A program made the position numbers and the translations under genes. Under the pieces are notes generated by a model, which was not told the DNA's origin, did not search any database, and saw only the letters and a program-made list of their open reading frames with translations. Below, piece by piece: positions 10,989-64,000 of a stretch of 64,000 nucleotides of DNA (position 1 is the first letter of the stretch; each line of letters opens with the position of its first letter). Origin of the DNA: Moniliella sp. 'wahieum' (taxonomy: Eukaryota); assembly GCA_003971905.1 (NCBI GenBank), contig RSEE01000062.1, forward strand, positions 1 through 64,000. The letters run 5' to 3'.

Positions 10989-12287
<1,299 letters not shown>

Positions 12288-12323
12288 TTATCCACCCGGG
12301 CAGTATCGGCGACACGGGATTCC

Positions 12324-14800: not shown

Positions 14801-15047
14801 TTCACAGATCTCTGATGCCGCTACGCCACGCTACCGACGGCTGAAAGAATTGAACGTCTTGGCATTTTTGCGGCTGTGCGTTGGGTGACTTTATAGTGAA
14901 GCTTGAAGCATGATGCATGAAGTGCATGAAGCGTGAAGCGTGAAGCTTGAAGCTTGAAGCTTCAGTCATCTAGTCATCAATCTAGTCATCGATCATCCAC
15001 CCTTCGTTCCTATCCCCCAGGAGCATGATCTGATCAGGTATCCATAC

Positions 15048-15134
15048 TCCTCGATGGTCCAACGGCTATGATGTGACGCTCTCAACGCCTGCGTGGTGAA
15101 CCGTCAAGACCGGGTTCGACTCCCGGTCGGGGAA
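15048..15134 (+). tRNA. tRNA-Glu(CTC) with 16-nt intron (15085-15100)
   Basis: Acceptor stem TCCTCGA/TCGGGGA, anticodon stem TGACG/CGTCA, CTC at 15081-15083, T-arm CCGGG-TTCGACT-CCCGG, T-run terminator at ~15137. Confidence 0.93.
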
Positions 15135-15464
15135 CATTTTTGCCTAACGCCGAAGGATGCTGGTGAAGGACACACGGAGACCAGCGTCAGAGGACGTGAG
15201 GGAGTGGGTTCTAGAGGCGGTCACTGGGCGGTGGAGAAGCAGCCTGCAACAGCGTCTGCCTCTAGGAGCATCAAACGGAAGACGGATTGGCCGGCGTGGT
15301 TGGCCTCGGCATCACGTGATGGCATGGCGGAATGGGGCGGTTTGGCTCGAAATTTGGCTTGGCCTGGCTTGGCTTGACTTGGGGCGGAAAACCATCCACT
15401 GCGGCTCCTTGAGCAGACAAGTGACGCAAACCCCCACCACACTTCTACCTTCGTCGCGCACATC

Positions 15465-18975: not shown

Positions 18976-19272
18976 GGCTGCGGTGGGGGGGCTGCGGGCG
19001 GCGGTGGGCGGGGCAGGCAGCGGCAGCGCCAGCCCGCAGCAGCCCCGCATCCGGAGTGCGTCCAGTCGTCCCCACGCCGCTTCGATCGGCGCGCAAGCCA
19101 GCGCAGGGCAGCCGCATGACGCATGATGCATGACGTCAGACGCAGCGGAAGCCAGCGCGCAGGCGCAGCGGAACACGGGTTGCAGCGACGCCATCAGCAG
19201 TCCAGTCCATATTTCCAGACCACCCGCCGCCAACCGCTGCCTGCCTCGCCGCCGCCATGCGAGTATAGCCGA

Positions 19273-21186
19273 CATGGAGCAGTGGCTCGACGCCACTGGC
19301 CCGACAGTCTGGTACGTTCCCCGCCCCCCTCCCACACCTACCGCCTGCTGACCCCCCACCACCACCAGCGCGACCTCCCGCAGCACGTCGCCGACACGGC
19401 CCAGTTACTACACACCCTCGCCGACGAGCTCGCCCGCTACGCCCCGCCCGCCCTGCCCGACAGCGTCCAGGCGCAGCTCCACACTCTCCAGGGCAAGCTT
19501 CTCCCTCCACCCTCCCCCGCCCCGCCCGCCCCCGCCCCCGACACTGCTCTCTGCCCCGTCGGCTGGGCCAAGGACCACCCTTTGACCTCGTTGCCGGCGC
19601 AGCCGCAACTCGGTCGGTCTCGGCCTCGCCTGCCATATGTTGCCCCCGACGCACCCGGGCCGTGGCGAACCGTCTGTGCGGCCGTGCTGTGCGCCCTGTC
19701 CGTCGCCCTGCCCGCGTGCGCAATGGCATTCGCCGCGAGGCCGTCATCGTCCTGGGTGCCGACACCCCCTGGGGCGTGCGCTCGTCACCAGTTTAACCTC
19801 CGAGGGCCTGATCGTCATTGCGGCCGTCAGCAATCCCGCCAGTTTCCGCAGCCTGGACACGCAGCTGTTGCCTTCCAGTGGGTATGTGGCGGTGCGGCAC
19901 TTTGATTGGCGTCGCTGCCCGGTCGGTGATGGGTTTGTGGGAAGATGTCAAGTCGGCCTTGGCGCTTCGGTTCCCGCTCCATGGCGGGCGACCCGTTTGC
20001 GCGCCCGGTGATGGGGTGATCCTGATTGGCATTGTGAATGCCTTGTCGTACATGTCCGCCTCATCTCCGACCGCCGAGGAGGGCAGCATGGCCAACTGGC
20101 CACTTCGGCCGCCAGTGCGGCGCATCGCTGCAGCATACGCTCAGTGCTCATGTGACCGCGCCCGTCGCGGCGATTTCGGCGCTGCTGCCCGAACTGCGCT
20201 TGGGACCTCAACGGATTTACACGCAAAACCAGAATACTTGACGCCGCTCACTGTTCTCACCCTGATTGATGGCGCGGCGGCGCACACTGCGTCGGCAATG
20301 TGGCCCGTTTGGTAGCCGAGGGCGCGACGAGTGCGGCCTCGACGTTGCGCCAGTCAGCTTCGGAACGTGCCTCGGCCCAAGCCAACGCTCAAGCCGTACG
20401 CCGTTGCGCTTCACTGTCCTCTCCTGCCGCCCGTGAACGCCAAGGCGACCTGGACGGACAAGGAGCGCGCTAAGCCACCGCGTGACGGATACCGTTGTGG
20501 ACCTGATTCTGCCTCGGATGCCGAGCGGCCCTTGCGGCCACGGATGCGGGTGAGCCTCGGGATCCCAGTGTGGGCGGGACGTTGGAGCCGCTGTGGCAAG
20601 CGTGGAGCCAGGCTCGCCTTGCGGTCGCGGCCAAGCTGCCGCAACCTGTGGTGGCGTGGATCGAGCATTGTACCAGCGCCTTTCGACTTTATCCCGGCAG
20701 ATCCAGACGCGCTTGCCTCTGTCGGGGCGCCGGCGCCGGCGCCGTCATGGGGGGGGCAAGAGGGACCACGGCGTACACCGTCCCACTCGGCGCTGGTCAA
20801 GCGGGACAAGTGGGGTGGAGCGAGTACAAGGGTACAAGTTAACTTTTCCCGGCAGGGCGCAGCGTCGAGGCCTGCACCGGTCCCCTCGGGCCCGTTCGGC
20901 CGACTGGATGTCCCTCGTCCCTAGAGACGGGCAGCAGTGCGACGGAGACGAGGTGCTGCGCTCTGCTCCGTCGTCGGCGTTTGACGAAGAGGAGGAGAAT
21001 GAGGGAGGAGAAGCGGCGGACGTGAGCGCGCGCGCTGGGACAGCGGGGTCCGGGCAGCCAGAGCAGCCAGAGCCAGCGGCGGGTTCGCCTCCCCCAACAG
21101 CATCACCGCAGAGAGGACAGAGTGGACCGAAGACGGGCGTGGCGGGCTTGGACCAGAGCTGGGTGGAGCTGGGCGAGGGGCAATGA
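19273..21186 (+). CDS. Hypothetical protein with hydrophobic segments and acidic low-complexity C-terminus
   Basis: Overlapping protein-like + ORFs from MEQWLDATGP to AGLDQSWVELGEGQ*; frameshifted; divergent from the phosphatase gene. Confidence 0.5.
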
Positions 21187-21609
21187 ATGATGCTACTGAA
21201 GGACAAAGCTAGTTGGGACACCCAAGGACAGCGGCATGGGCACTCGCCATTAGAAAGAAAACCAGGCCATCTCAGCCCCCACTCTAGGCTCAATATCACT
21301 ATTTGATTCGGTGGGGAGCGCAGGTTGCAGTTGCAGTGGGAAAGGGGGAACGCAAGCATGTTTTCTGCCTAATCTCGGGTTCTGTGTTCCGGCATCTAAC
21401 ATCGGGGCACCGCAGGGAGCGATCGCGTTTGTTGCTTCCGTCGCAGGCCATCCGTCGCACACACATCACATACACACACACATACACACACACACACAGC
21501 AAGCCATTTCGTCTCCTCGAGCCATAGCCTGTTACAGCGGATATGCATGTCGGCGCATAGTAGCTGACAACGTGCCCGCCGACGCACTCCTCCGTTCGAG
21601 ACAGCCTGC

Positions 21610-22827
21610 TCAAAGCTTCTCCACTACCAATGCAGTGGCCGCGCCGCCTCCGTTGCACACTGCCGCGACCCCTTTTGGCCCGACTTGAGGGCGTGGAGGA
21701 GCGTGACGAGGATTCGACTGCCCGAGCTGCCAATCGGTGGCCCAGACTCACCCCGCCGCCCAAGACGTTGACCTTGGCGGGGTCCAGGCCAAGGAGCTGG
21801 ATGTTAGCCAGCGGTACAACGGCAAACGCTCGTTGATCTCGAACAAGGCAATATCCTCCTTGGTAAGCCCGGCGCGGGCCAGCGCCTTGTTAATTGCCCC
21901 AGCGGGGGCAATGCCAAAGTCCATCGGGGCCAGAGCGTGGTCGGCAAAGGAGAGGATGCGAGCTAGAGGCTTGTACGATTTTTGGTCCACCGCGCTCTCA
22001 CTAGCCAACAACAGTGCGCTCGCTCCATCGGCCAAGCTCGAGGCGTTGGCGGCGGTCACCGTGCCATCTTTTGGAAGACAGGTTTCAGGGCACGGATCTT
22101 GGCCTCGTTGGCATTCTCAAACCCTTCGTCCCGACGGACGATCTGGTCGCCCTTGCGCTTGTCGGTAATCGTCACGGGTGCAAGCTCGGCATCAAACGCT
22201 CCGTTAGCCCAGGCTTCAGCGGCACGGCGATACGACTGCAGTGCGTAATCGTCCTGTGCCTCCCGTCCAATCTTCAGGTCGGCCGCTGTCTTTTCAGCAC
22301 AGACGCCCATCATGACCTTATTGTACACGTCAAACAATCCGTCCTGCACCAACGAGTCGGTGAGATGGCCATGGCCAAAGCCCGAGGCGGCCGCCGCTTG
22401 ACGTAAAACGGGGCATTGGACATGGACTCCATGCCACCTGCAATGCCAGGGCACGCTGGCCCAAGGCCAGTAGCGACGCCATCAACGCCACGCTTTTCAG
22501 CCCCGACGCACACACCTTGTTGATCGTCGTCGCTTCGGTCGAGGCGGGCAAGCCAGCAGCCAACACTGCTTGGCGGGCCGGAGCTTGGCCGAGCGAGCCT
22601 GCACCACATTGCCAATCAAGGCCTCTTCCACATCTTGCGGCGCCACGCCAGCGCGTTCGACGGCGGCCTGGATCGCTGTGGCGGCGAGCTGGGCGCGGTG
22701 GCTTTGGCCAGCGCGCCGTTGAAGGAGGTAGTGGGGTGCGGGCGCCACTGAGGATGAACACGCCCTCGACCGCGGCGGAGCGGGCGGGCGAGGCGGCGAG
22801 GCGGCGCGTGCACGAGGGGACGACCAT
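21610..22827 (-). CDS. Acetyl-CoA acetyltransferase (thiolase)
   Basis: [90 protein letters not shown]. The N-terminus resembles a mitochondrial presequence. Confidence 0.95.
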
Positions 22828-23492
22828 GGGGGAGGCAGGCAGGGGCAGGTGGACGGGGGATGGCTAGGCGGTCAAGAGGCGCAGAAAGAGGCAGAGCCAC
22901 GCCAGGCCAGCTACAGTCGCCCGAGCAGGCATGCGCCCAAGCGTACTATAAGTACTTAGTGGCTACTAATACTTGGCGAGCACTGGTGGCGGGCGACGGA
23001 TACCGGAGGAGGGCGGAGAAGCGGATAATCAAGGACTGATGGGCACCGGCCCGACGCACTGCCGGGCCGAAGCGGCGCGCCCTGGAGCCCCGCCTCCCTC
23101 TCGCTTCAACGATGCGGCGACCGCCAGGCAAGCGAGCCCCAGGCCTGCGGCCAGTGCCATCCGCAAGTTGATTATGCTTCGTGGCGCTTGTGGGCTGCGG
23201 GCCGGTAGCCGGCAACCCCCAACCGGCGTCCTGCCCCCACCCACCGATGGGTAGCCGGTGGTACCCGGCCCTAAAAAGCGCTGCGCGTGGTGTGTATAGT
23301 ACGCTCTTGTCTCTGTTCCCCCATTCGATGCCTTGCTATGTGGGGGCGGCATCTGTCCCTCTGTCTCTGCCAGTACTACTCGGACCTCCCTCCTGTGCCT
23401 TCGTGCCGCCGCCGAAACAAAAGAGGCGTCGCATCCATGATGACCATTAACGCATTGACGCTCAACGTCTAGCACCATCGATGAGTCTAGTC

Positions 23493-26695
<3,203 letters not shown>

Positions 26696-26906
26696 CGTGC
26701 GGTGCAGCAACGCGGCAAAGCAGAGCCAAGCAGCAATCTAATGGCACTGGAAGTGGTACTGGTGGCGGCCGTGGCCAGGCGGGGGCTAAGGGTTATGTAA
26801 TTCCGCCCCAACGCCTCATTTTCTCCTCGCCGGCGGCGCAGAGGCACGGCAGGTGCTCTACAGGCTCTACCGCCCGCGGCTAGTCTGCCTGCCCAACCAC
26901 ACCGCC

Positions 26907-27213
26907 ATGACCCGCGGCAACCAGCGTGAGCAGGACCGGGCCAAGGCGCAGAAGAAAGCCGCGGCGGGCAACAAGGGCAAGGCCAAGCAGTCCGCCACCT
27001 CGCTTGCCCAGCGCCGCGAGCAGGACGCGGAGATTATCCGTCAAAAGATGGCTGTAAGTCCGTCCGTCGCGCGCCCGGGTGCCCTGCTGCGACCCTGTTT
27101 GGCATCCTGACATCCTGGCATTCTCTCGACTGACACAGTACCTTCTTCTTCCAGGCTAAGGCTGCCCGGCCGCCGAAGGTGGGGAGGAGCCCAAGGCCAG
27201 AAAGGGAAAGTGA
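26907..27213 (+). CDS. SERF/4F5 family small protein
   Basis: MTRGNQREQDRAKAQKK...RREQDAEIIRQKM; intron gtaagt ~27054 to cag ~27153. Confidence 0.9.
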
Positions 27214-27403
27214 ACTGGCATTTTCTGGGATTCTGGGCTCGATCCCGTTCTGGTTTCCATGCCGGGTTACGCTCTTCTCTCCCTCTGTTCCGTTATGCTC
27301 TGACCTTGTCGCCTCTCCTCGTATCGGCCCTCGTGCCTGGACGCTGGAACTGTCCATAACTGTCCATCGCAGTCCCTTTTGTATAGGATCGTGTTTCCCC
27401 TGG

Positions 27404-28223
27404 TCACATAGGCCTACATTCTGCAAAACCACCTTGCGCTCGCATTCTACGCTTGCTCTGTACGTTGTGGCATGGTAAACGTGTATTGTATGGTAAGGCG
27501 GTATACATGTCAGGTCTGACCGTTGACTTGAACTGCTCGGTTGAGATGTGCTTGGTCAGTTTGGTTTGGACTTCTTGGGCCAATTGCAGTGCATCGTCCG
27601 TGAAGCGCAAACAAACCGGTCCAGGTTGGGCGTCGCAGCTTGGCACCAGGCCTCGGCCAAAACGTTTTCGCATGCACTTCCTTCCACTGTCGAAAACGGT
27701 ACTGAGCGGATTAAACTCTGTCTTTGTTTGCGATGAAAAGTGGGTAGGAACCTGTTGCGTTGAAATGAGCGAGCTGTATATGCATGAGGCGACAGAGTAC
27801 ACCGCCAACACGCGTTTCCAGAAGCTCCAACCAAATTCTACCTCGTTCTCTGCGTAGAAGAGCAAGTTGGTGCTGCCGGACAGCGTGCGACGGCCGAGCC
27901 GGTCCAATCCATTCCCCCAGGTCTCGTCGCAGAAAGGGGGAATGGTACAACGAGCCAGGGCACGAGTCGAAGCGCCTAGCCGAGAAGGTGAGGACCAAAG
28001 CCAAGGCGGGCCAGATTGACAAGGGATGGATCATGCGCGAAAAGGAGCTGATCGCAAACAAACGCAGCAAGGGCGCACGTTTGCCTGTCCGTGCTTGCTG
28101 TGTCTTTAGTACATTGACCTGGTTGTACAGGTTCCCAAACATTCCAAGCACAGTGGTCGCCAGTGCAAGCACGCGTTTTAAGTTTTAAGCACGTCCCGAT
28201 ACCCCTTTGCTCGCCTTGGCCAT
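27404..28223 (-). CDS. Hypothetical membrane protein
   Basis: Two overlapping ORFs with hydrophobic stretches (IHPLSIWPALALVLTF; VLAVYSVASCIYSSLI). Confidence 0.4.
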
Positions 28224-28233
28224 GCATCAGTAT

Positions 28234-29361
28234 TCATGTATTCCCTTCGGGATTCCATGCCAGTGCCTGAAGTGCCATGGCGACCGCCCCTTCATAGGTG
28301 AGGCTGCCTCCGATAAAGCCGTGGCATGAACAAACGTGCAGTCGGGAATGCCAGTAACGCTGGCTATCACATCGTCTCTCAACCCCCGCCACGGCTTTGG
28401 CAGCGCTTTGCGACACGCAAAGCTCTCTGGTGACTCGGGTACGGCTTGTACGCGCCAGGGCCCTGTTCGTCCGGGTATAGCACATAGAGGATGGGCCGAT
28501 CCACAGCCAGAGCGCGCTCCCAATTGAACAGGTGCTGTTTCCACGGAGCCGCACAGGGCAGCACGATTACCTGTCCCTCGACACCGGGTACCTTGCTGGT
28601 GCGCGTCAACATGGCTTCATGTACCACGGCGCGTGCGGGAATCCAGGAATGCACCGTGTCTTCCACCATGTCCCAAAACTCTTGCCCGGCCATCGCGCTG
28701 GCCTGAGCAAACTTGGTGTCTAACTCGGCATCGGTCACCGCTTGGTTCCAGCGCGGGTTGAGCCGCTTAATGCGAGAAGAAAGGTCGGTGCGAATGGAAT
28801 AGCGGGAAGGCGGGTTGCTACGTGGGATTCCATTGTCAATCGCGTCAATGGATTGGACCACATCGTCGTAGAGCTTGATCCAAACTGTCTCCACCTCGAG
28901 TGGGGTCAGATGGGGAAAGTTGTGTGCGAGGATGTCTTGGCCAAAGTGTCTGGGAGTGTTTTCCATTTAGTTTTCACGGCGAAGAGGGGAGGGGGGGGGA
29001 GGACACGACGTACTTCCACACCAGGCCAGCCGAAGAGAGACGCACCGTATGGGCGGCGTCAAAGGTGGAGTCGAAGCTACGCTGGTGGTGGTCAAAGCGC
29101 AGGGTGGATGGATCGTACACGCCCCCCACGTCCAGGACGAGGGCTGCGCGATCCAGCAAGGCGGGGTCGCGGGTGCGGGTGAGGGCGAGGGAAGCAAAGC
29201 GTGGTGGCGGCGGACGAGGGCGACGGCGAGCGCCTCGTCGGCATGGAAGGAGCCGTTGTGCGTGGCCAGCTCGATGGGCGGGTGTGGCTGGGTGCGTAAA
29301 GCCGGCTGGGGCAGCCGCGGCGGGGCCGAGGTGGACGCGCAGCGGCGCGCGTGGCGGCCAT
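28234..29361 (-). CDS. MYG1: MYG1 family exonuclease (UPF0160)
   Basis: LATHNGSFHADEALAV, RTRDP, LDVGGVYDP, FDHHQR, LSSAGLVWK-HFG across an intron at ~28946-29012, IDAIDNGI, LPKPWRGLRD, FVH..GFIGG. Confidence 0.93.
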
Positions 29362-29680
29362 CGCACGGCAGTCGCATGGGCATTCGCATTGGCAGTCGCA
29401 CGGGCATTCGCACTGGCAATGGGCTCGGCATTCGCATCGGCCTAACGCACAGGAAGCACACCCAGCACCCACCGCTAGACGGGCGGGAAGAATTTGAAAG
29501 TGGCAGATGGCGCACGTGCCGAACGTCCGCTGCTGCCCAGCGCCTGACGTAAGGCGCCAGCGCAGCCGAGGCGGACGCTGCCGACGCGTTTTGTCAGCGG
29601 ACGCGTGCTAGGGTTGGGGGCGCCAGCAGGGCGCTGGGCAGGCAGGCACTGTGGACCGCCGCGGCGGGGGACGAGTGAGC

Positions 29681-29733
29681 GAGGCAGAAGCGAGGCCAAG
29701 AGGCAGAAGCGAGGCCAAGAGGCAGAAGCGAGG
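29681..29733. repeat. 19-bp tandem repeat, about 2.8 copies, in the MYG1/ATP19 divergent intergenic region
   Basis: gaggcagaagcgaggccaa repeated. Confidence 0.85.
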
Positions 29734-29772
29734 GCGGCCGCTGTTCTTCTCACCCACCGCCGCTTGTTCGCC

Positions 29773-30236
29773 ATGGTTGCTACTACCCCCGTCTTCGGTG
29801 CGTCTTGCTGCTGCGCCCGATCTCCGCCAGTGGGTGGCAGGCAGCCCCAGCCGGCAGTCCTCCCTGCCGCCCCGCTCGGCTGCTGCTGCTGCTGCGCCCT
29901 GCCACCACGGCCCCGTCCCCGCATCCTACTGACTCTCCCTTTCGTCTGTCCCTCTCTCCGTCCCCCAGGCCGCGAAGTGTCCAAGCCGCTCCTTTCCGCC
30001 GGCATCCTCGGCCTACGGCGGGATCGCCTTCTTCATGAGCCGCCCCAAGGCCGGTACCGCCCCCGGCCCCACTGAGCCCGTCATCTCGGCCTCCAGCACG
30101 TGCGTATCTTCCCCCCCCGCGCTCCCGCCCTGCGCACATACTAACGTGAACGTGCGCGCAATAGTGAGGAGGAGGACTTTATCAAGAAGTTCGTCGCCGA
30201 CGCTGAGAGGCCGAGAAGGCAGCGGGCAAGCACTAA
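29773..30236 (+). CDS. ATP19: Mitochondrial ATP synthase subunit k (Atp19-like), 3 exons
   Basis: MVATTPVFG|REVSKPLLSAGILG..FFMSRPK..EPVISASS|EEEDFIKKFVADAE; matches the fungal Atp19 pattern P.I.ASS.EEE.FIK.F; GT-AG introns visible. Confidence 0.75.
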
Positions 30237-30620
30237 GTGTAAGTGTATACCGGCCTCACTAGGCTTCCCATCCCCTTGCCCTGGGCACCTCTCCGTAAGC
30301 AGCTCCCGCACGCCATCGCTTCCAACAGGGTTTGGCGTGGAGGGGCTGCCATTCGTAGCAGCGTAGCTCTGCTTTCTAGTGGACGAACATCGCGCAGGCA
30401 CATGGGACCACGTCCCACGGTCAAGCCAAGACCAGAGCAAACTGCTTTCGGACTGAGTCGGATGCGGGGTAGAGGATCTGGTCAGTCAATCAATTTAGTG
30501 AGGAAACGTTGGCGGCATCATGTTGCATGTGGAGCAGGGCGCAGGTATATACTGGTGTATTGTCATGGGGGGTAGCCAAAAGGTCGAGGCACGCTACGGG
30601 TGACCGGAAAACGAAGCAAA

Positions 30621-31246
30621 TTAAGCAGCACCCAAGGGCAGCCAGTGCGCCCCCAAGCGCAAGGAACCAGCTAACTGCCCCGTGGGCGCGGGGACAAGGC
30701 AGTCGTACGGGAGAGCCATGGTTCCATCCCCATCGTAAGGCGAGCAATCGGACCAAAGACCGTCCGTCGTGCCACGCCAATGGCTCATGCGCGGGCGAGA
30801 ATTGACCCAATCCGCTTCAAGGTCCGATTCCGGTTCATCAAAGCACGGGGGAGTGAAAGAACCCATCTGTCCTTTCGCATGCGACGAGACAGAGAGTTGG
30901 CCCTCTCGGCCCTCGTCAGGCAAGGTTGTTTTCTCTCGGGAACCCAGACCGTTACAGCAGGTACCGGTGTATGCACGTATAGGCTTCAGAAGTTAAGGGG
31001 GGCGACGACCGGGTGGTAAGGCGTCGCGGCCTACGTACTACAGGGCATTGCAACCCCCTCGACACCGCTGGCGCCATTCTCTCCCTTCCGCGGACGAATC
31101 TCTTTTTGTGTGTTGGCTGATGTAGGGAGACAGTGAGAGAAGAGAACGCCGAGAGGGATGTCTGTCGATGATCAACCTCCCTCCTTCCGTAAGGCCCTGT
31201 TTGATTGACTTGTAGCGCTTACAGGGTGTATCGGGCGTGTGTACAT
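30621..31246 (-). CDS. Possible hypothetical protein (frameshifted)
   Basis: Protein-like ORF ending ..FDEPESDLEADW..LPLGAA*; no family recognised. Confidence 0.25.
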
Positions 31247-32058: not shown

Positions 32059-32153
32059 GCTGCCGGCCGCGCCTGTGTGCGTCTGCCGTGCATCTGCCTT
32101 CGCCTCCGCCGTCTCTGCCGATTGGTACCACCTGTTCGTTTCTGCTGCCAGGC

Positions 32154-47151: not shown

Positions 47152-47955
47152 CCTTGGTAGCGCTTCCAAGTAACCCCCGCAAGATGAACGGTTAGGTTTA
47201 GACGTAGCGTTCCCCCTGTCCCAGCCTTAAGCTCTATCAATGAAATGGACGCGATCTAGTATGCCCACACAGATATTTTCTTCTGCGTATTTTGTCACCA
47301 CCTTGTCGGAGACGTACCAAGTAGGAGGGTGACCCCTTCGGTGTCCCCATGATGTCACCCGCACTGTGCTTATCCGGCCCTACGGAAGGGTCATTAACAA
47401 CAGGGTCATCTCGTTTGAACAGTATACTGTGTGCGGTGGTCGTCGGCTACTAACTAACAATAACTTACACTAACTTACTCGGCCCGCAATAAGAACCAGA
47501 CCATCAAATATAACACAATCATGTGGTCTTTGTTCTGGTTTGCATACATGGTTTTCGGGTCATGCATCATGCCAGCCAAGTCGATTGTCACATGTCAAGC
47601 TTCAAGGTTGGGCATGGAGAATCGTTTTCCGTGTCAACATGTATCAAGCCTGGCTATATCTCCATGGAAGGGAAGAGCGTTGAGATGAATGACATTTCAC
47701 GGTGATGGCAGATGCAGCGGTACCACGGATACGAATGTAGCACAGGGGGAGAAGGGGGGTAGGAGGTGCCGCCTGGTCGCGTAACCAGTAGCACCAAAAG
47801 AAGAATACAGTATATGAATTGTTCGAGGTTGAACGTCGATATGAGCAGCGCAAACTCCCCACGACGCTGGGAGGCATAAACAGTAATGAACAAGAAGAGC
47901 ATGATTGACAGTGGGAGATCGAGACGCGTAGAGCAAGCCACCCTTTTGGCCTGTG

Positions 47956-50240: not shown

Positions 50241-53200
50241 TGTTGCCAAAAAGCGGATGAAGAGACCGGTACTCCTTCGATCGCCCTGGTGGGTGTGGAA
50301 GAAGAAAGGACAGCAGGTGTTGTGGAAGGAGAGCCGACAAGAGATAGCAGACAAAGAGGTCGAGATGGTGAGTATATATCGGAGATGGAGATATGAGCTT
50401 TCAGATTGTGGCTGGCATGAATTACTGATTGACACAGCAACATGTGTCACTGGAATTAGCTGCAGCATCCCAGCGCACCACTCCTGCATTCGACCGAAGG
50501 GTGTAATCGGGAGCACAGGGACGCAGGATACGCTCTTAGTAACGCACCCGTCACCCACGTCACCCAATACTGTGACGCACTAGTGATGCTGATTTCAGAA
50601 TAAGGGACCAATGACTAGTGACGCTAGTGACGCGTGACGACCGGCGATGCATGATGCATGAAGCTGAAGCTGCGTAACGTAACGCGTAAAGCTTAAAGCT
50701 TAAAGCTGGATGCGTTTGAATTCACAGGCCAGGGCGGCCCCTGGTGCGTGGTGGCCCATTGTGCTCAGCCGGCCAGCGGCTCAGCGGGAGCCAGGGGAGA
50801 CTAATAAGCGCTAAGCATAAGTCCATGGCTGTTCTGGCTGAGTGCCCAGCTGGGCCCACCGCGCCGCCTAAGCCGCTAAGGCCTAAGGCCGCCTCAGGCC
50901 TCGGTCTCACCGGTCACTGGTCACCGGTCACCGGTCACCCCCAGCCCTTTGATAATGGCAATTGCCCAGTAGATACTAGATCTGAGTTCAGATCGTTCAG
51001 AACTCACACCGAGTAACTGAGTTACTGAGTTACAGTAGGGTTACTAGCTTTCCTCAGTACGGCCAGTACGGAATCTGCGTGCACTGAATTCAATCACCGA
51101 GTACTGAGTTACGGACCCGTCAGTACTCAGTCATCGTCAGCACTTTCCCGCTGTTCGCGGGCCAGGTCCAGGCTATTAGAGCGTACACTTGGCCAATGCC
51201 CCCTTCTGTTAAAACCGCATACTAGCTTTCACACTTTTTAGCGATGAGCACAACGCGCCATACTGCATACCAGGCCATACCAGGCCATACCAGGCCATAC
51301 CGGAAACGTTACCCATTACCGGTTGCCAGGTGATGGACAGCGGTCCATGTTACCCTTTCCCGCTTGTCCTTTGTCCCATGGACAACGGGGTCACCGGTCA
51401 CCGGCTACAGTAGAGGCTAGATAATGTTCTCGCCCTCCAGAACGGAGAATATTGCATCAAGAAATGATTAATGAACCCGGCGGTTCCGGGCGTGGGCTAC
51501 CGGCGCCACTACACCAGCGTGGCGTCGCAAAAGTGTCTAGGAAGGCCTGCGGGGATCCCTCAGGCGTGCTCAGCCCTATAATAGCTTAGTGTTAAATTTA
51601 ACCCTTGACTGGTGACCCTTAAAAAACGTGAGCCTCGGCGCTGAGCTCAGCCTCAGCCTCAGCCTCAGCCTCAGCCTCAGCCTTCTGTGTGAGGCCTGCG
51701 ACATAAGTGAGGGGTCGTCATTCACAACTTCTCCATCAAGAAAAACTGGAGCTCAACCGTGGTCAGCATTGTAGCATGTTGATCAAAAGCAAAGGAGGGG
51801 AGCAGAGGTTGACCGAACGTGTGCCCGTGAGAAACTCTCAATGCTCAGTAAGCTGAGCTCTTACTGGTTACTCCCAGAGATGCTGAGCACCGACGCTCGC
51901 GGCCCGCAACTGGATGGGGTGCATGTCACTGTCTGCCTTAGTAAAACATGTAATGCATACCATGAGATCCCACCGGCAATGAGCGTTGGACGTTGAACGT
52001 TGAACGACGTTGAACGTTGAACGTTGTGAACAGAGAGGGTCTTGGTTCATCCATATTGAGGAGTGACCTCACCGTCACTTGTGACCGGGTGACCCCCACA
52101 AATTGATTAACGAGGGCGAGAGTCGGCGGGTACATGCATGTCCACGAGAGCGCACAGGAGGGGGTGGTAACGCGTAACGGGTAACAAAAGGTGTTACGCG
52201 GGTGCGGGGGCCAAGCATGGCTAAGCTGTTGGACCTACGCATTGCATGCTACATTGCATGACGTTTGTGGTTGCCAATGGTGCTATGTCCTAAACATGTA
52301 ACGGTTTGAAGGAGCCAGTTAGTGCATGAGCGGGTTTGGGGGGTCCTGCATGTAGAAGAGCAATTAAGCTGGCAGATAATACCATTACATCTTCCGGCAT
52401 TACTATCATCTCGTCACCTTCTCACGATCCAGGCCCCAGGGGTTCATCGACAATTAGATCACGGATGTATATAGTTGTGTCAACGGCCTCAGCGGCCTCA
52501 GCTTATATTCAACTGCATAATGGCACCACCTACAACAGTTACGTACTCTTTACTACTACTCTCATATCGACGAGAAAAGAATATAGACGACGTGCAGGAA
52601 ACCCACTTCACCTGTCAGCATGTCAGGTCAGTTGACCGATGGCAGAGGAACAACGACGACGGACGCCATCTCTCCGAGAGAGTAAGGTGGGCAGATTGAA
52701 AAAGGCTGGTAGGATTGAGAGCAACAGCGGACGACCAGAGAAGAAAAGCCCTGCCGGAAAAAAGAAAGCTGTTCGTTTCTTCCATTTCTCCACATTGTTA
52801 CTTGAGTTGCTTCATTGTACAACAGTCCTAGTCATGTCGGGATCAGAGCGACATGGTCACATATAGTCATCAGGTTTGATGAACCCTCATTTGTTCTAGA
52901 CCCTGTTTGCCCTTTGTCTATGCTCCCCCTGCATTCTACGTCTGACTCAGCTCGCATGCTATCTTCTCCGAGGTATATTATATAACCTCGCCTCCTTTCT
53001 CCTCGATGAATATGATTCTCGTCCTTTTCCCATCTCCATCTTCTGTTAAGTCATACTGTCTTTACCTTGGTGCTCGCCACGGGTCCAAGAGGGTCCAGTA
53101 TGGGGGCGTGGCTCCGGACGAGAGGGACGATGTATCGTTGGGTGGTGGGTAACCGGTAACCGGTAGCCGGTAACCGGTAAAACCTGTGGCGATTGTATGG

Positions 53201-55219
53201 AGATAATGATGACCCTCTCAATCCATCGACCCGACGGTCACTCATAGATGAGATCAGAGATGCAAGAAGCGGCTGCGGAGCGCCAGGTTGCATGTTGTCG
53301 GGCGATGCGGACGAAGGAAGGAAACCTGCGCCGGAATCCTCCGCCATGTACCGCGGCTCTGCAACCTGTCGCCTTTCACGGCAGGTGTGGGGTAAGGAGT
53401 GGGTCACCGGTGACAGTCACTGTGACATGTGACATGTGACATGTGACATGTGACCGGCCAGCCGGTCAAGCCCTGGCAAGGTGATCCGGTGACCCGGTCA
53501 CGTGCACCGGAACAAGGTCCGCGTGGTCAGACTGGTCCGGTGGCCAGGCACCGCGAGCGCACCAGGGCAAGGGCTGCTGAGCGCACCCCAAGCCAGGCAC
53601 TGTGAGCATGTTGGGCGTGCCGCTAGGCTTGGTGGCCAATCGGCGCTGTGCGCGATTAGCCGCGCGGACGTAACTAGTAACTCCCAGCCAACGCAGCCTT
53701 GGCAGTCGGCATTAGAAGTGCCTTGCCTGGTGTTGCCCTTCCCCGTCATGTTGACGTGTCAATATTCAATCAATCGCCGCCAGCGTGACACGTGCCGCGT
53801 GACGGCATAGTGCACCATGGCGCATGGGTGAGGTGTGACGCGGGAATGAACATGCCGGGCCGGGACAGGCGGACCCTTCTGTGCCCCAGCAGCCCAGCAG
53901 TCCAGCCGCGCTCCGGCGGAGCGCTGAGCATCAGCGCCCACGGGCATTGGGGCAGCGGGGCACGGCGCCAGTGGCGCCCAGCAGCCCAGTGCCCCCCAGT
54001 AGCGTCGTCGGCGTCGGCCGCCCCCGGCAGCGATGGCTGCGGCGGCGCTGTAGGGCGCTGTCCGACCGGGTCTGCTCGCATGCGCCGCAGTGCGACACAC
54101 GAATGCGGGGGAGGCACGGCGCCTGTGCGCGCCCCCTCGCCCAGCGGGGGAGGCGGGGCGGGGTCTGGTTGGGCCTGAGACAACTAACACCGTCCTCCCT
54201 CCGCGGCACGGCGCCAGTCTCTGCGCGTACCCCGCCATGTTCGGCCCCCCGCGACCGATGCGGGCCCAACCGCGGTCGCCCCAGCACGCCAGTGTCGCCG
54301 CACCCGCGCGGCCAGCCGGCTCGGCTGCTCCGGCGCCCAGGCCACGCCAGCCGGATCGGGCATATATAACGAATGGCACGCGCGCCCTGCCCGCATCACC
54401 CGCCACAGTCCCAGCCCCCGTTCGCAACCGCCGTCCTCTGCGGTCTGCGTTTCTGTCCTCCTCCCACCCGTCCCCGCCCTCGTCCCCATCCCCATCCCCG
54501 TCCTCGTCCCCGTCCCCGTCCCCATGCCCCCGCCGCCATCATCATCCCCTCCCCCGCCCGGCAAGCCCTCCCCCCGCCTCCGCTGCCGCAGCCCGCGAGG
54601 AACCGGCCCTTGTTCCATCGCCCCGCCTCGCCACCTCCGCTCCGCCGCACGCCCCAACAGCGCCACGCCGGCGCACCGACGCTCCCGGCCATCCACGATG
54701 CTCACACTGCTTGGTCTCCCGCCGAGACTCCTCTGCCCCCCATCGACCAGCTCACTGTTATCTCGCCTCGCCGACACAGCGTAGCTCCGTCTACAACGTT
54801 CACTCCCTCGTCGCGTCCCTCCTTGCCATCCACCACCTTACCACCCCCCCGCCCCGCCCCATCGCGCCTCCGTCTCCTCCACCACCTCCACCACCTCCAC
54901 CTCTTCTGCGCCGCTGGCGTCTTCCCTGCTTCCGCCCCATCGATTCCCGCCTGTGGGTGGGTGGGGGGAGCGTCCACCGCCCCGCCAACATCGTTGGTCT
55001 GACGATTTGCCACAAGCACGCAGATATGCTGTGCGTGCCAACCTACTCTCGACTGTGACCGAAGCGAGTGGGTCGGTTACGCCTGCCTGGTCCGGAGCCT
55101 CGACCCCTCACACCCGGTCCCATTTCATCGCCGCCGATCCACACCGCCACCTCCCACCTCTGCCCCCGGCAAACAATGTATCCCCCACCTCGTCTACCCC
55201 ACTCGTGCTAGGCCCAGTT

Positions 55220-57044: not shown

Positions 57045-59775
57045 TCTCCTCATATCGAGTCGGAACCACCCGACCCAAAAGTTAAAAGTTTTTGCCTTGT
57101 TCCCTTACGACACAGCTCTCATCCCATTCTCCCTGTTCACATGTCACAGGCGATGTCATGACTGTGGAGGATGTGGTCTGGTGGCTTGATCTGATTCCCT
57201 TGTTGTTACTACTACTTATACTCAGTCCGTGTGAAAGTCATGTTGTGGGTATAGATACGCCACGGAACCGTGGCGAAGAGACGCAGAACGAACGCAGAGA
57301 CCGCGGGCGTTGTTCTGTGCCGTTTTGCAGGAAAGTTATGTGGGACTAGTATGGAATACGCACAGTTTATACATCAGGCTGGCAGCATCTGTATGCATTT
57401 AAAACAGGATTAGTAACGTATAGCGCATACATTGTCCACAGTCCATAAGCCTGGCTGCGGATGGGCCTTAAGGGGTTCAGTGAAAAAGGTTTGTTCATAT
57501 ACTTTTGCGAGAGACACAACTGACCCTGCGACAGCCTTCCTAGCTGGATGGCCGAGATCAACTGAACCAAGATGCCATGGTTTGGCCGAGTGAGATCTCC
57601 TCATAGAGAAGGGTTGCTGCGTAGAATCAAGTTGTAAGTAACTTCACCTAGTACTACTTTGTAGTAGTAGTACACGGCTCTTGCATAGCCCGTTGATACA
57701 GTTGGTTGTATACAAAAAAGGGTGTGCATTTTGCCGATGATGTTTTTAGAGCGCGAGCACAAGTACCACAACCTGTAGAGTAGGATAGATCGGGACGTTA
57801 GAGACAATAATAATCCGAAGATCAATGAAAAAAGCGGCGGGGGCATCCCTCCTTTGGGAACGGCCAACTGTTCGGATTCCTGCAACGTCCGTTTGGGCGT
57901 CGTGCACCCAGTTCGCCCCCTAGCACGCAAAGGTGACCGTGTTGCACGGGGATCGCGGTTAAGGCCAACCATGTTGTGGGCCTTCTCAATGACACATGTC
58001 CAACACACTGATGCCGCCATCTGGAAGGAGGCGCAGCCTTCTCGCGCAGGAGATGCGTTTGGCTTTAGTTACTGTCTGAACCAAGGTCGAACTTGATTCA
58101 ATGGGTTTTTAGAACTGTTGTGGCTTTAGAGCCGATGGTCGGAATGGACATGCCTCATAGTCCCGATCGACCCCATATCTTGGCCCAGAAGAGACCTGGA
58201 GTGTCTCTCATAGTCGCCAGTCAAAGTTTGGCGAACAACCATCGACTTCCCACCGCCACTTGGTCCCGCCTACCCGACGGGGCCTTTATTTATGCCATGT
58301 TTCGATCCTCCTGGCCTTCGTTATCGTGTACCACAAGACCTGTGGCGCATGCCAATTGTTGCTCCCCAACAGAGCAAAAGTTTTGCACACAATAAAAGTG
58401 CGCCTGCGCTCCCACCTTGCAGTTCGTATGGGGGCGAAGGCATTACGGTTCGGGAGAATGGTAACCTCGCGTATGGGCCGGTTCAAATTTTCCTTTTGTG
58501 AACTGCGTTGTATCAATATTCTTGAGAGGGAGCCCCATATAGCAGCGCTTTTGACCGATGGATCAAAAGGTGTGGGACGTGGGTCTACGGAGGTGGAGGG
58601 TCAAGAGTCGATGGCTGCGATGATGACACTGGCAACGTGAAGCGCCTATAGGCACAGCCGTATCATCCTAGCAAATTCCATAGAGGGCTTCCGGAAACTT
58701 GCTAAGGCCTCGCTCTGAAAGTCGTCTGTGTTCTTCGGGATTTGGTGTTAAGGGCGAAGACGGACTCGAAAGCCTAGCGGAGCCTATGCGTAGTTTGGTT
58801 GGCGTGGGCATGGGCCTGACGCCGATAGTCCGTCTGATGATCTAGGTATAGCCACGATGAGACTAGTAGGTTGGATTTGGGAGCAAGCTCTGGGATCGAG
58901 TCTAGGGAGAGGAGAAGAGATCGCATAGGCTCCGACTGACTTGCCAGTCCGTCTTCGCCCGTGCCATTTGGGGTGTTTGAACCTCCCCACATAAACCCCA
59001 TCGTTACATTCTTATTCCGTCGAGAGGCTTTCAATGCATCCCTAGCATTTGGCTGTGAGCCCGCAGTATGGAGAGGGCAGTGGGTACTAGGTGCGAACGA
59101 GTGAGTGCCAGATCCCCTCTGGAGCTCTCACTTGCTGATGTATCGAAGTCGGGATCAAGGTCTGACAGCAATGGGAGGGAAATAGCCCTTTGGCCTTCTA
59201 TTCGTTCTTATGGTTGAAACGGAAGACTAGTGCCACAGAATCATAATAGCTTCCCTTCCTTCGTGCTCTCTTCAATCTCCGCCACGTTCCACTTCCTGTA
59301 CTCTTCCCCCTCCCCCCCGAAAGCCCGCAGAACGATGTCACTCGGTATTTTGGGACTCTTCTTGCACAATGTCTCATCACGGGGGGCAGCTCAACGGACT
59401 TTATGTGGAGCACATCGATAAGAGACCCCAAAATGACTATAATTACGGATGACATAAGGGTGCATATTCGGCAATAGATTGACATCGACATTAAACCCAT
59501 CTAGTAGTATAAGGGGTCGAGAACCACGAGAAAGCCGGAAAAGGTAGGTGAATTATTGACTCAGGCCCGTTTCGTCAAGTGTCCGGAGAAGTGAAGCTCA
59601 TGCCCGTGGCGGAGAGGGAAAAGAAGTGGATTGAAAGGCATCAAAGAGGAAACAGAGGAAATATCCACAATGCGACGGTTCTGACGGCAAGGATGTTGAA
59701 CGCCAGGGGGGAGTACAGAAGGAAGGTTGAACCTGGATTCTGATATGTTTTATAGACGATGAGATCGTCCCCGTT

Positions 59776-61963
59776 TCAATTCCCGGGGATAGGTATCTCC
59801 TTTGCAAAGCGTTTTGCACGCCATTTGGGCCCGTGAATCAGAATGGTAATCACACCTGGCACACTGAGGGCAGAAATCCCGGCAACGACCGTGTAGGTTC
59901 CGCCGGTACCAATACTTCTGATCATATACTCGATGCAGGCTGTTCCCGCCGCACCTAGGAGACAACGAACGAAGTTGCTGGAGGCGGAGACGCCAGCTGA
60001 ACGACCAGGCAAGAAGTCAAGCATAAGGTTTTGGAAGATTGTGCTGATTGTTCCGACGGTAAACCCATTGAGGAACAAAAATACGATAGGGGCTGCACAG
60101 CTAGTCCGTCCAACGCTCCATCCGTATGCGATAGTAGCAACCTGGCAGAAGGAAAGCAGTCAGCATTGGGTACGGATGCATGGTCGCAGAAGAGAAAACG
60201 AGAGAACGCGATCAGGGAACATACCACATTCAGACCAATCATGTACGGCCAAAGCATCAGACGTGCCTTTTCAATCGGGAAGGACAGGTCCTTGGCACCA
60301 TCAGTTCCAACAGGTTTGCGACGAGGGGTTTGGGTTCCCGGGCCTTGGATTTCGAGCTTGGCGGTACTTGCAGATGTGGAGAGGGTGCCTTGCTTCTCGC
60401 GATCCATTTGCTTGTCGGAAATGACCGTAGAATCAATAGGTTCGTCCATTTGTCCATGTTTCATGTCCTGTTCCAAGTCTTGCTGCGCCAAACGCTCCTC
60501 AGTTTGTTGTGCGACTCGACGATAGGTCCAGTTCAAGACTCGGCCGGTGCCAAAAGCCGCCAGCATGGCTCCCGTTCCAGTACTGATAAAACCAGACCTG
60601 ATTGCATCACCGTGACCCGTAGTGTTGCTCGAAATTGGTGGCGATGGTAGAAAGAATCATCATCTGGCCGAAAAAGGGAATGCGTACCCTAGAAGGCACA
60701 ACACCACCTCGGAATCAGCAAGAATCTGAGAGGAGTAAAAGAGAGCATATCCTTCGCCTCGTAACAGATGATCGCGAAGCGACGCTGTACGGGACTTTTC
60801 CCTTCCAATCGAGATGGGTCGCATGGAAGTGGTAAACCAGGCCGAGCCTGTCCCGTCCGTTGAGTCACGGTCTTTCCCGTCAGGAGGCAGAATAGGGCCT
60901 CGTGCATCAGGGTGGGAGCTGGCTTGCTGCCATTTCCAACCAGCTTCCGTAGGGTTTCTGGCAGGAAGAACAGAAGTGCAACAACACAAGCTGCGGCCAG
61001 GCAAAAGCAAAAGAGGAAGATATATCTCCATCCGGCACCCGAAGTAATAGCAGCTCCAATGAGCGGAGAGATGGCGGGAGCAACAGAATAGGAAGCCACA
61101 AAAATTCCCAAGGGTCCAGCTCGTGTGGAGCTAGGGAACAAGTCCGCCACTGTACCAGAGCCAACGGACATTACAGAGCTGCTTCCTACCGCTTGTAGCG
61201 CACGAAGCACCATGAGGCCAGCGTACACTCCGCTCTTGGACGAAGGCGTAGCATTGGGCAGCAGGTACATCCCAATGCAGGCACCCAAATAGATTATGAG
61301 CGAAATGATGTACACTGGTTTGCGGCCCGTTCTTCGGAAAAGTTTGGTTAGTGTATGGAACTTGATGGCAGAAGGGTACATACTTGTCGGTATTAGATCC
61401 GAGAACCATAGGGCTGAGACCTTGAGCAATCATAAAGACGGTTACACTCAGCTGGATGCTTTCCTGAGGTTGCTTCAAATCCTGTCGGCACATCACAGTT
61501 AGTGGTTATTGTTTCATCAGAAGGGCAATGATAAAAAAAATGGAACGTACCCTCGCAATACTAGGGATAGCCGACATGTAGATGTTGCTGGTCATCGGAC
61601 TGAGGAATGCGGTTGTGGTGACTAGCCCAAGGATAAGATTTTCCAACTGGGGGCAAAAACACTGTAAGGCGGTTCCTCTTGTGGGGGGGAAGGGGGCGAG
61701 AAGGCAGTTGTACTAGTATTGGTGCTGTTAGTAGTGATGCCTGCAAATTTGCCATCCGCATCGTCGATTTTGGTGTCCACCCCGAAACTGATCTGGCGGT
61801 CATTCGAAGACAGACGCCGGGACTTGGAAAGTGACTGGACCGGAGAACAATGACCCGGCGTTTGGGAGCCCGATTCCATCACGTGGGAGGCCTCTCCTGT
61901 TGGCGGGTTGAGGGGCGGCAGTGCATCGCTGCGAATAGTGACGCGGAGGTGATTGCCAGCCAT
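59776..61963 (-). CDS. MFS DHA1-family drug:H+ antiporter (QDR/AQR-like)
   Basis: AFLSPMTSNIYMSAIP, SVTVFMIAQGLSP, GRKPVYIISL, LRALQAVGSS..GSGTVADL, GWRYIF, LPETLRKLVGNGS, FPIEKARL, SASSNFVRCLLGA; several introns. Confidence 0.92.
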
Positions 61964-64000
61964 GACGGATATATCAAGGCTCTTTGGAAGGGCGAAAGGG
62001 GATTGTGGGCAGAGCGGGAGAGGGGATTGTGTGCGAGAGACCTGACACGATAAAAGCGATTGGTAGCGAGGGACGCTTAGAGGAAGTGGATCGAGTGGCT
62101 AGAAGTTTGCGCAGTGATGGTGTTAAACACACCTGCTATGCTGACCTTTATATATAGCGGACAGCCACGGAAGCCACAAGCTGGTTACGGTTATAACAAG
62201 ACATGGAGGATGACCCCACGGCCTGCCCAAGGGAGACTTGGTGCCCGCATATTGGTGATGCATGATGTCTGATGTCTGATGTGTGACGTGTGACTTTCGA
62301 AGGGAGACGTGTGATGTACGATGCATGATCCAAATGATGTGGATGATTCATCGATGATCGATAGTGGATAACGGGCGGTTGCTGAGTCCATGCACCATGT
62401 TACACCCGTTTACACCCTGTTCCATGTTACACCTTAATAGCTTCAAGCTTTTCATGCATCATCGATCATGTGCATGGTTTTTGATTTTTAAGGCTTAATG
62501 ACTTGTCAATGAACGCGGTTAAGATGATTGTGCTACGTAGCAAGTCCGGAGCGCTGGCACGCGTTTGACGCTCGTGTCGCTCCAGCAGGCCAACCCAACC
62601 TGCTGCACCATCCTCTGTGGAGCGCTGTAAGCATGCGATGAGCGCTGAGCGCGAGCGCTCAGGCTGAGGACTGCTTAATGACACCAATGATTAGATCGTA
62701 AACATCAGGACAGTTGCACCCTCCCGTAGGTGGCTTCGGGGCCCCATACTCCCAGCGTGGATTTTTGACTCCGCATACAGGGTGTCTTCCTCTTCACGCG
62801 CGTAAAACGGGACTTTTCCAAGCGTTCATCGCGATCACCGGGGGTGCTCACGGATCAATGTCACTCCTTGCTGCAGGCCTCGGAGGATCAAGAGCACCCA
62901 CCGCCACATCGTGCCCACCGCCAAGGAGCCTGGCCTGGGCAAGTCTGGGCGCCGAGGCCCCCACATGTCGTAAGTCACGCGTGACGTGCCACCGAAACGC
63001 ATAACGCGTAACGCGTAACGCCTCAGGCTTGCGAACAACCTCAGTGTCTCAGCGCCTCAGCTCGTCTGTCGTTTCTAATTCGTGTCGCTCCGTACATTCA
63101 GGCGTACCCGCACCGCGTCACACAAAAATGCACGGTACGGCTCTCCTCCACAGGCCTTGGCGTGTCATTTTTACCTTGATCGATAAGATTAGATATGCCA
63201 ATATCTTATGCCAATGCGGCATGGGCACGTCTGTGCTTGGCGTGCTGTAAACTCAAATTGCGTCCGCGGGTTGTATAGACTAGACAAATTCCGAACAGAA
63301 GGAAGACAAGAGCCAACACAACAATTAAACATCCAAGCTTTTGGACTTCAACGTCAAGTTACCATGTGAAATTGGCATTGAAGCGATCGGACGGCGATAG
63401 CCAATCCCCTACTTCGCGCATCGGGGGTACCGGGTACCCTCCACGCCCATCGCACATTGCTTCCGTCCCCCCCCCCCGCGCCACCGCTGGCGTGATTTCA
63501 CAAAAGAAGCTTTTGAAGCTTGGTTCGCTCTCATATAGAGAAAGAGTATAACATGTGTATACAATGCCGTCTACCATGACGGTTATTCCCTTCGATCCCT
63601 ATTGCCCCTACATATAATACAGGATGCCACATGTGGAATGGGTCTTCTGGAGTAATGCAGCACCGGTCATCATGCATCATGGGAAATTTTTAAGGCCAAT
63701 TGGGCTCAAAATGATTGATTAAAGAATGTCGGTTTTTGAGGCAACGGTACTATTAGTGTACTCAGTCTGAGTGTACCTCGTCTCTTCATCTATCAGTACT
63801 CAGTTGTGTATTCAGTGAGTACACTAGTACTGACACCAAGTCACTGGTCACCGGCCGGTAAGGTCTAACCTTCGCTACACTTTACTTACAGTTACTAGTT
63901 ACTAGTTACTGCCAAGCCGAGCAAGCATGCACTTATCTATGTGTGCATGCTTCCAAAAATAAAGTTTTAAAGGTCCCGGTCACCGGTCACATTCAACGAT

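Follow-up and report, generated by a model that had tools for sequence, protein, structure and literature searches.

Flank-templated 7-bp scars at TNA triplets in a 64-kb sequence of Moniliella sp. 'wahieum': possible footprints of transposon excision

The window and its genes

The subject of this analysis is a population of short palindromic scars, each built on the triplet TNA, in the gene-flanking DNA of contig RSEE01000062.1 (Moniliella sp. 'wahieum', assembly GCA_003971905.1). Positions 1-64,000 of this contig, a stretch of 64,000 nucleotides (nt), were analysed and are called the window; all results and coordinates refer to it. The window begins with TAACCC telomere repeats, has a G+C content of 50-69% and carries spliced-looking genes, with Pfam matches to Hsp70, an OBG/DRG-type GTPase, thiolase, a DEAH helicase, MYG1, acyl-CoA dehydrogenase, two transporters of the MFS family and Rot1. 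Because Rot1 is, in the Pfam description, a fungal endoplasmic reticulum chaperone, we treated the window as fungal, and as a chromosome end. A query with the Rot1 protein returned a single related protein, 37% identical to it, and a query with a fragment of the DEAH helicase against metagenome contigs found no relative.

A preliminary description of the window had noticed, in many of its intergenic gaps, arrays of 7-bp units that consist of TNA followed by a 4-bp palindrome. In order to count this motif we used the 10-mer TNA-pal4-TNA, where pal4 is any 4-bp palindrome and N is the same base on both sides.

Excess of palindromic 10-mers at TNA triplets

The window holds 67 TNA-pal4-TNA 10-mers, compared with 2.2 (SD 1.4, maximum 7) in 100 dinucleotide shuffles. 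Equivalent 10-mers with other outer triplets stayed at or below the shuffled level, with 2 observed against 2.0 for ANT, 4 against 7.0 for CNG and 2 against 7.1 for GNC, and the core itself is biased, a palindrome occupying it in 67 of the 123 TNA-N4-TNA 10-mers but in only 2.2 of 34.4 in the shuffles. The motif is real, and its enrichment holds against shuffled sequence, other spacers and non-palindromic cores alike. Of the positions that had been given as examples, one, 50663, has its nearest instance at 50652-50661; each of the others coincides with an exact instance or lies a few bases from it at most. The pattern had been said to start at 14897, but earlier instances occur at 3704, 4726, 6434, 10066 and 12986.

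Perfect two-copy tandem duplications number 35 at period 7 and 7 at period 8, and period 7 appears in 29 of the 150 rows returned by Tandem Repeats Finder. The unit is a 6-bp palindrome plus one base in 23 of the 35 perfect 7-bp duplications; 22 of these 23 palindromic units have the form A-N4-T, which is equal to TNA plus pal4 in another register, and TNA is present, by eye, in 7 of the remaining 12.

When consecutive units are joined, the instances form 55 chains, which use 14 distinct cores. The central base is C in 27 chains, G in 19, A in eight and T in one; this preference for C or G (46 of the 55 chains) is moderate, because the hot zones described below themselves contain 450 TSA sites against 206 TWA sites (S, C or G; W, A or T). 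The emphasis on arrays in the preliminary description has to be reversed. Longer chains do exist (seven of three units, one of four and one of five), but 46 of the 55 have two units only, so that most events stand alone and arrays are exceptional and secondary. Its judgement that ordinary slippage is inadequate stands, given one rule over 14 cores and 46 chains that are first events.

As a comparison, we examined 120 metagenome contigs chosen for the presence of (AAGCTTN)3. None showed the multi-core grammar, the best having seven other matches, with two cores, in 8 kb; a palindromic heptamer array alone does not bring the multi-core pattern with it. We found no description of a genome-wide pattern of 7-bp palindromic scars at TNA in open-access papers and preprints.

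The palindrome is templated by the flank

The palindrome had been taken to vary freely from array to array. It does not: in 49 of the 55 chains one half of it is given by the two bases that flank the outer TNA, and the six remaining chains are each, by eye, one base off this rule. The match is confined to one side in 41 chains (25 on the right and 16 on the left, read on the + strand) and occurs on both sides in eight, where the chance of at least one match per chain is about 12%. Because the match is so predominantly one-sided, and so far above chance, the palindrome is created by the event rather than pre-existing. The elementary object is therefore a 12-mer, [TNAwx] x'w' [TNAwx], which is a 5-bp direct repeat split by the mirror of its own last two bases (primes denote complements).

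A scan that did not assume TNA, for strings of the form U + rc(last k of U) + U with U of 3-8 bp and k of 0-4 (rc, reverse complement), peaked at U = 5 bp and k = 2, with 104 matches against 10.8 expected, and 76 of the 104 begin with TNA. For U starting with TNA, the other values of k gave 5 (k = 0), 10 (k = 1), 0 (k = 3) and 1 (k = 4) matches. With the 2-nt mirror fixed, a direct repeat of 5 bp was found 76 times, 6 bp five times, 7 bp eight times and 8 bp once, with nothing longer outside arrays. Of nine TNA-centred 7-mers that are repeated with a 2-bp spacer (the 7+2 form; 6+2 and 7+0 are named likewise), eight have, by eye, a spacer that mirrors one of their ends. Since the direct repeats stop at 7 bp, with a single case of 8, and the spacers are such mirrors, these results point to an underlying duplication of 7 bp.

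We therefore described each site as S = pqTNAwx, symmetric about N, and tested for products of the form S + rc(S)[:kL] + S[kR:], in which the first kL bases of the reverse complement of S are added and the first kR bases of the second copy are lost, at sites with unrelated flanks, that is, where pq is not x'w'. The diagonal, kL = kR, dominates the 8 × 6 grid of offsets, and every product on it is S plus exactly 7 bp. The k = 2/3 product (both values give one string) was found 42 times, 10 of which are ambiguous with k = 1, leaving 32; the k = 4/5 product was found six times, k = 6 once and k = 7 never, with at most 0.35 in shuffles. The off-diagonal cells (2,0) and (2,1) hold five each. Centres of ANT, CNG and GNC showed no excess of formula products for k of at least 1. 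In the k = 4/5 class the mirror copy passes through N and complements it to N', which is the mixed 'TCA/TGA' case of the preliminary description; among TNA-pal4-TN'A 10-mers, the predicted flank stands beside 6 of 10, against 0.2 expected. The sequence itself shows the constant +7, the templating of the palindrome by the flank, the limitation to TNA centres and the spread of k.

Distribution and history of the scars

The instances lie in zones without open reading frames (ORFs) of at least 100 aa, and they are clustered, with 42 of the 64 one-kb bins empty and a variance/mean ratio of 3.05. Six hot zones, about 10 kb together and now containing 656 TNA sites, hold most of the scars; in our reading of the predicted genes, five of the six appear to adjoin the 5' end of a gene or long ORF. 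The scars are distributed as follows.

3704..12995: isolated single scars TCA-CATG (3704), TCA-TCGA (4726), TCA-CTAG (6434), TGA-GATC (10066) and TCA-GTAC (12986); 7+2 variant at 10071-10086; k = 4/5 variant at 9859
14897..14995: composite cluster upstream of a + strand GTPase-like gene, with scars TGA-AGCT, TGA-TGCA and TCA-TCGA; three-unit chain at 14941-14957; 7+2 variant at 14916-14931; k = 4/5 variant TGAAGCTTCA at 14955-14964
19124..37684: isolated single scars TGA-TGCA (19124), TCA-AGCT (31458), TGA-GGCC (36202) and TGA-GCGC (37675); 7+2 variant at 31580-31595; k = 4/5 variant at 22949
35472..35804: three scars, TCA-CGCG (35472), TCA-ACGT (35720, both flanks match) and TCA-CTAG (35795)
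42837..43601: hot zone from the Rot1 5' end to the MFS 3' end, with seven chains, TCGA (two), GCGC, GGCC (three units, 43283-43299), AGCT and TTAA (two); 7+2 variant at 43372-43387
46458..47604: hot zone to the right of the MFS gene, with TGA-CTAG (46469), TCA-AGCT (46502) and TCA-TGCA (47560)
47588-47604: two-core chain TG-TCA-CATG-TCA-AGCT-TCA-AG, the cores being exact mirrors of the left flank TG and the right flank AG
50612..50937: densest stretch, with eight chains, including (TCACCGG)3 at 50921-50937
50680-50703: CG-TAA-CGCG-TAA-AGCT-TAA-AGCT-TAA-AG, with cores derived from the flanks CG and AG
51120..52177: six chains, TCA-GTAC, TCA-CCGG, TGA-TTAA, TGA-ACGT (two) and TAA-CGCG
53150..53768: five chains, TAA-CCGG (two), (TGACATG)5 at 53423-53453 (the longest chain), TAA-CTAG and TCA-ATAT; k = 4/5 variant TCACCGGTGA at 53404-53413
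57137..57146: isolated scar TCA-CATG, the only scar between 54 and 62 kb
62256..63989: hot zone to the right of the second MFS gene, with eight chains, TGCA, TGCA/TCGA, GCGC, (TAACGCG)3, TGCA, GTAC, (TTACTAG)3 and CCGG; k = 4/5 variants at 62348 and 62975

In the chain TCA-TGCA-TCA-TCGA-TCA at 62452-62468, the second core, TCGA, is not derivable from the present flanks and may reflect a later substitution or an overlapping event. The densest scar zone also contains two other arrays, a perfect (CTCAGC)6.3 hexamer array at 51646-51683 and a (CATACCAGGC)3.6 decamer array at 51266-51301; the former can be read as repeats of TGAGG+C and is possibly a 5+1 relative of the scars, or else an ordinary microsatellite.

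The chain lengths were compared with a simulation in which 67 random hits fell on 300-450 starting TNA sites and each hit added one site. Chains of two, three, four and five units were obtained 45-51, 6.5-8.2, 0.8-1.5 and 0.1-0.3 times, respectively, compared with the observed 46, 7, 1 and 1. Because this agreement is close, re-hitting alone can build the arrays; slippage is not needed, although it may have contributed.

Besides the 76 exact 12-mers, 103 were found with one mismatch, against 10 expected; none of the 12 positions is free of mismatches, and the outer flank positions have somewhat more than their share. This surplus indicates a process old enough for many scars to have decayed, and the window has probably seen well over 100 events in all. 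A search of the window for internal paralogues that might preserve ancestral states yielded only subtelomeric repeats, none of them with scars.

Other features of the window

After the terminal telomere repeats come subtelomeric blocks in three copies with degenerate telomere-like runs (CCCTAACCCTACCC...), the stretches concerned being 1-21, 139-205, 4027-4100 and 4580-4647, an arrangement that suggests a duplication of chromosome-end modules, with about 3.9 kb between them. At 4124-4536 a 40-bp unit forms a perfect tandem array of 10.3 copies at 100% identity. The unit also occurs singly, in diverged form, at 42-138 and 3929-4025, and the array itself is either very young or has been homogenised. 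At 437-857, a degenerate 18/39-bp minisatellite (GAGCACAGGCTTGG...) falls within long overlapping ORFs that have no Pfam match.

ORFs antisense to the Hsp70-like gene match the Pfam family NAD-GH (PF10712), as at 10993-12354 (+) opposite 10992-12287 (-). We take this family to be one that picks up the antisense frame of Hsp70 genes, so that presumably no real second gene is present. Two G+C-rich blocks (0.64-0.66) have a strong negative GC skew, at 38001-40000 (-0.23) and 54001-56000 (-0.22), the second with C-rich 6/12-bp repeats at 54467-54554. Both blocks may encode proline-rich protein on the + strand. A G18 homopolymer (17593-17610) and a (CA)20 repeat (21458-21498) lie in otherwise gene-dense sequence.

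Excision footprints as the favoured origin

We regard it as probable, if not strongly so, that the scars are excision footprints of a cut-and-paste DNA transposon that makes a TNA-centred 7-bp duplication, the element itself not being in the window. What we infer, from the form of the products, is a transposon that leaves hairpins, joining of the ends in register and a heteroduplex. The element would insert at nnTNAnn, duplicating the 7 bp S = pqTNAwx, and its excision would leave both flanks as hairpins sealed exactly at the element boundary, as with RAG and Transib. Host nucleases would then open each hairpin with a nick some 2 nt from its tip, on the 3' side, giving the 4-nt palindromic 3' overhangs wxx'w' and q'p'pq; in the general case, a nick k nt to the 3' side would give palindromic 3' overhangs of 2k nt. 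With the overhangs laid opposite each other and both strands ligated, the joint would always be 7 bp longer than the empty site, one strand reading S + k mirror bases + S minus its first k bases and the other being the mirror-image product. The 4-nt heteroduplex would resolve to TNA-wxx'w'-TNA or to TNA-q'p'pq-TNA. Each scar would add a new TNA, and a site that is already palindromic would yield cohesive overhangs, so that later hits would extend the scar into a 7-bp array.

Several features of the scars would follow from this scheme. The constant +7 with a mirror of variable length is what would be expected of a 7-bp duplication combined with boundary hairpins. Right-type and left-type events would both occur because the mismatch can resolve to either core, and the two-core chains at 47588-47604 and 50680-50703, with mirrors of the left and the right flank, would be accounted for by the hairpin model. 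The rare 7+2 and 6+2 forms would arise because the two hairpins were opened at unequal offsets, and arrays would grow because the overhangs of a palindromic site are perfectly cohesive. The scars also show two general traits of excision footprints, namely retention of both target copies (a 5-7-bp direct repeat around the joint, constant +7) and an inverted copy of the flank at the joint, like P (palindromic) nucleotides (49 of 55 exact, six one base off). Hairpins on the flanks are an established route for hAT, Transib, MULE and RAG (PMC5499845), and Artemis:DNA-PKcs is described as opening hairpins at +1 to +4, with a main site at +2, so that 4-nt 3' overhangs dominate (PMC2175297). The spectrum of k fits such hairpin opening.

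A number of observations weigh against this origin. No donor element was found in the window: pairs of terminal inverted repeats (TIRs) with a flanking repeat of any kind, 7-bp repeats centred on TNA whose inner ends are inverted, and 3-bp TNA repeats next to TIRs of at least 10 bp were all searched for and did not rise above chance level, and the CTCACTG, CACTG and CACTA motifs in the window form no paired structure. Pfam revealed no transposase, integrase or reverse transcriptase domain in 36 of the 62 ORFs of at least 200 aa or in all 214 ORFs of 100-199 aa, the 26 unscanned longer ORFs all overlapping scanned ones and some groups of fungal transposases having no Pfam model. For a family with no copy left the density is very high, most of the 67 exact extra units lying in about 10 kb with 656 TNA sites, to which 103 one-mismatch 12-mers must be added. 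Plain 7+0 duplications are no commoner at TNA (5 loci) than at the other centres (4, 8 and 9). Equal opening offsets at both hairpins and the ligation of mismatched overhangs are assumptions of the scheme. The elements of the hAT7 family, if they cut like Ac, would be expected to leave odd palindromes, which were not found in the window, and neither Kyakuja nor the CACTA-type elements are known to pass through hairpins.

Comparison with known elements

Among the closest known systems are the P nucleotides of V(D)J recombination and the flank hairpins of Transib and RAG, where, as here, the palindrome is even and centred exactly on the break; the core wxx'w' is even and no base has been replaced. 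Transib has a target duplication of 5 bp, whereas the scars keep 7 bp. V(D)J joints differ in another way, since the scars show almost no nibbling or untemplated addition, have a fixed +7, are in the germ line and are spread over non-coding DNA. In the scars, as in that system, the inverted copy of the flank is most often 2 nt long and varies between about 1 and 4 nt, matching the +2 opening by Artemis (PMC2175297). For the RAG-related CMCT clade as a whole, target duplications of 2-5 bp are given in PMC12730594.

The Ac/Ds and other hAT elements, in plants, Saccharomyces cerevisiae and Candida albicans, also keep both target copies and leave P-type inverted repeats at the joint (PMC5873905). 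P-nucleotide footprints of Ac/Ds have been seen in yeasts, and the same paper cites Pso2-dependent repair of Ac/Ds hairpins in yeast; host hairpin opening and end joining are involved there, much as in the route proposed here (PMC5873905). In contrast to the 7-bp duplication of the scars, however, that of Ac measures 8 bp. Ac-type palindromes are odd rather than even, their centre being the complement of the base that adjoins the element, and Ac footprints are heterogeneous (28 types in 128 events; PMC5873905), whereas here one type dominates. We looked for the odd-palindrome products that Ac-type offset hairpins would give at a 7-bp site, and the predicted forms occur 0, 0, 0 and 3 times.

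DNA transposons with 7-bp duplications are described in Basidiomycota, namely hAT7 in Pucciniales (rusts) and Kyakuja, of the KDZ group, in Laccaria, whose CA..TG termini resemble those of the RAG-related CMCT clade (PMC12730594). Their duplication length agrees with that of the scars, but the window contains no copy of either, and the account of these families in PMC12730594 includes no footprints in the passages that concern them.

The preliminary description had offered PIF/Harbinger footprints as one origin. Its choice of a transposon as the kind of agent is consistent with our reading, but the family is not, as the unit is 7 bp centred on TNA and not a 3-bp TWA duplication. PIF/Harbinger elements prefer gene-flanking DNA, and the T-N-A target is alike, but their duplication is 3 bp; for a 3-bp duplication with hairpins we found no comparable excess, with TNATNA at 51 against 36.3 ± 5.6 and TNATN'A at 21 against 33.3 ± 4.9. 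Shorter duplications were also considered. A 5-bp duplication with one-sided P nucleotides predicts TNA after the k = 4/5 class, where wx is found instead, keeping the +7, and the 7+2 and 6+2 classes also count against it; a 4-bp duplication with three P nucleotides would need a variable duplication length in order to cover the k = 4/5 class.

Alternative origins

The cutting need not involve a mobile element. An enzyme independent of any transposon, whether a host enzyme or a domesticated transposase, might make cuts at TNA sites that are staggered by 7 nt and end in hairpins, at open promoters for example or in meiosis, with repair writing the +7. The lack of any element in 64 kb, the high and clustered density (variance/mean 3.05), the position of the hot zones mostly beside predicted gene 5' ends and the very stereotyped scar would all suit such an enzyme, although we know of none with these properties. 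From the geometry, however, a single hairpin break without a duplicated 7 bp would give a substitution and not a +7, and a stagger with fill-in predicts mainly plain 7+0 duplications, which are rare and not TNA-specific; we consider this origin rather doubtful. An error of replication or repair is unlikely. In that case a nascent strand would turn back at a TNA quasi-palindrome, copy two bases and resume, by template switching or hairpin-stabilised slippage, and the arrays would then grow by slippage of self-pairing units. In its favour are the quasi-palindromic form of the arrays, which would let them fold, the surplus of period-7 tandems (35 perfect cases of two copies, against 7 of period 8) and a few 6-bp and 9-bp relatives. 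The hairpin-repair process named in the preliminary description is right in so far as pal4 is a hairpin-type inverted copy of the flank. A template switch leaves the exact +7 at unrelated flanks unaccounted for: at 41 chains there is no homology for landing exactly 7 bp back. Slippage, moreover, cannot start the 46 of 55 chains that are first events, only T-N-A is affected while ANT, CNG and GNC show no excess, and the grammar is missing from all 120 (AAGCTTN)3 control contigs.

Selection for a regulatory, insulating or frame-closing code, in which a dimeric factor reads TNA half-sites or stops are placed in all frames, is very unlikely. The location in gene-flanking zones free of ORFs would agree with it, and TGA/TCA half-sites resemble those of bZIP factors. 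The observation that three units close all three frames of one strand is correct as arithmetic, 7 and 3 being coprime, but there is no evidence of function in it. As the origin of the pattern, a dyad-reading code finds no support in the cores, since there are 14 of them, each dictated by its local flank, with no common core sequence and no shared consensus such as an array of transcription-factor sites would have. Most instances are single 12-mers, the 103 one-mismatch 12-mers against 10 expected, with changes over all 12 positions, resemble neutral decay, and absence from coding DNA is to be expected of any +7 insertion. An assembly or base-calling artefact we find hardly credible, in view of a pattern that is flank-templated, strand-symmetric, confined to TNA and missing from long ORFs, and to our knowledge no sequencing error mode gives a flank-templated pattern confined to TNA.

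Significance

In comparison with known excision footprints bearing P nucleotides, what is new here is the unusual uniformity and density of the scars, the TNA-centred 7-bp duplication and the action of the process as a source of tandem repeats. If the scars are excision footprints, the genome keeps a dense, readable record of transposon traffic, in which each scar would show the site of the element, the distance at which the hairpin was opened and the manner of joining, and repair preferences would be measurable on natural events without a reporter gene. The in-register model with equal offsets predicts two sister products with different cores per excision. Tentatively, we would go further and suggest that the writer of the scars may be an uncharacterised DNA-cutting system, either a new group of transposons that duplicate 7 bp around TNA and form hairpins at the boundary as RAG does, or a descendant of such elements that the host has tamed and that acts on the host's genome. 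The system would be so active beside genes as to be a main source of promoter sequence turnover and of new tandem repeats in the fungus; the scars would then be a natural record of many hairpin-opening and end-joining events in vivo. The chains show how tandem repeats and small palindromes can arise where there were none before, and the mutational input is concentrated beside genes, where each event brings in a stop triplet and a 6-bp palindrome and widens the spacing by 7 bp.

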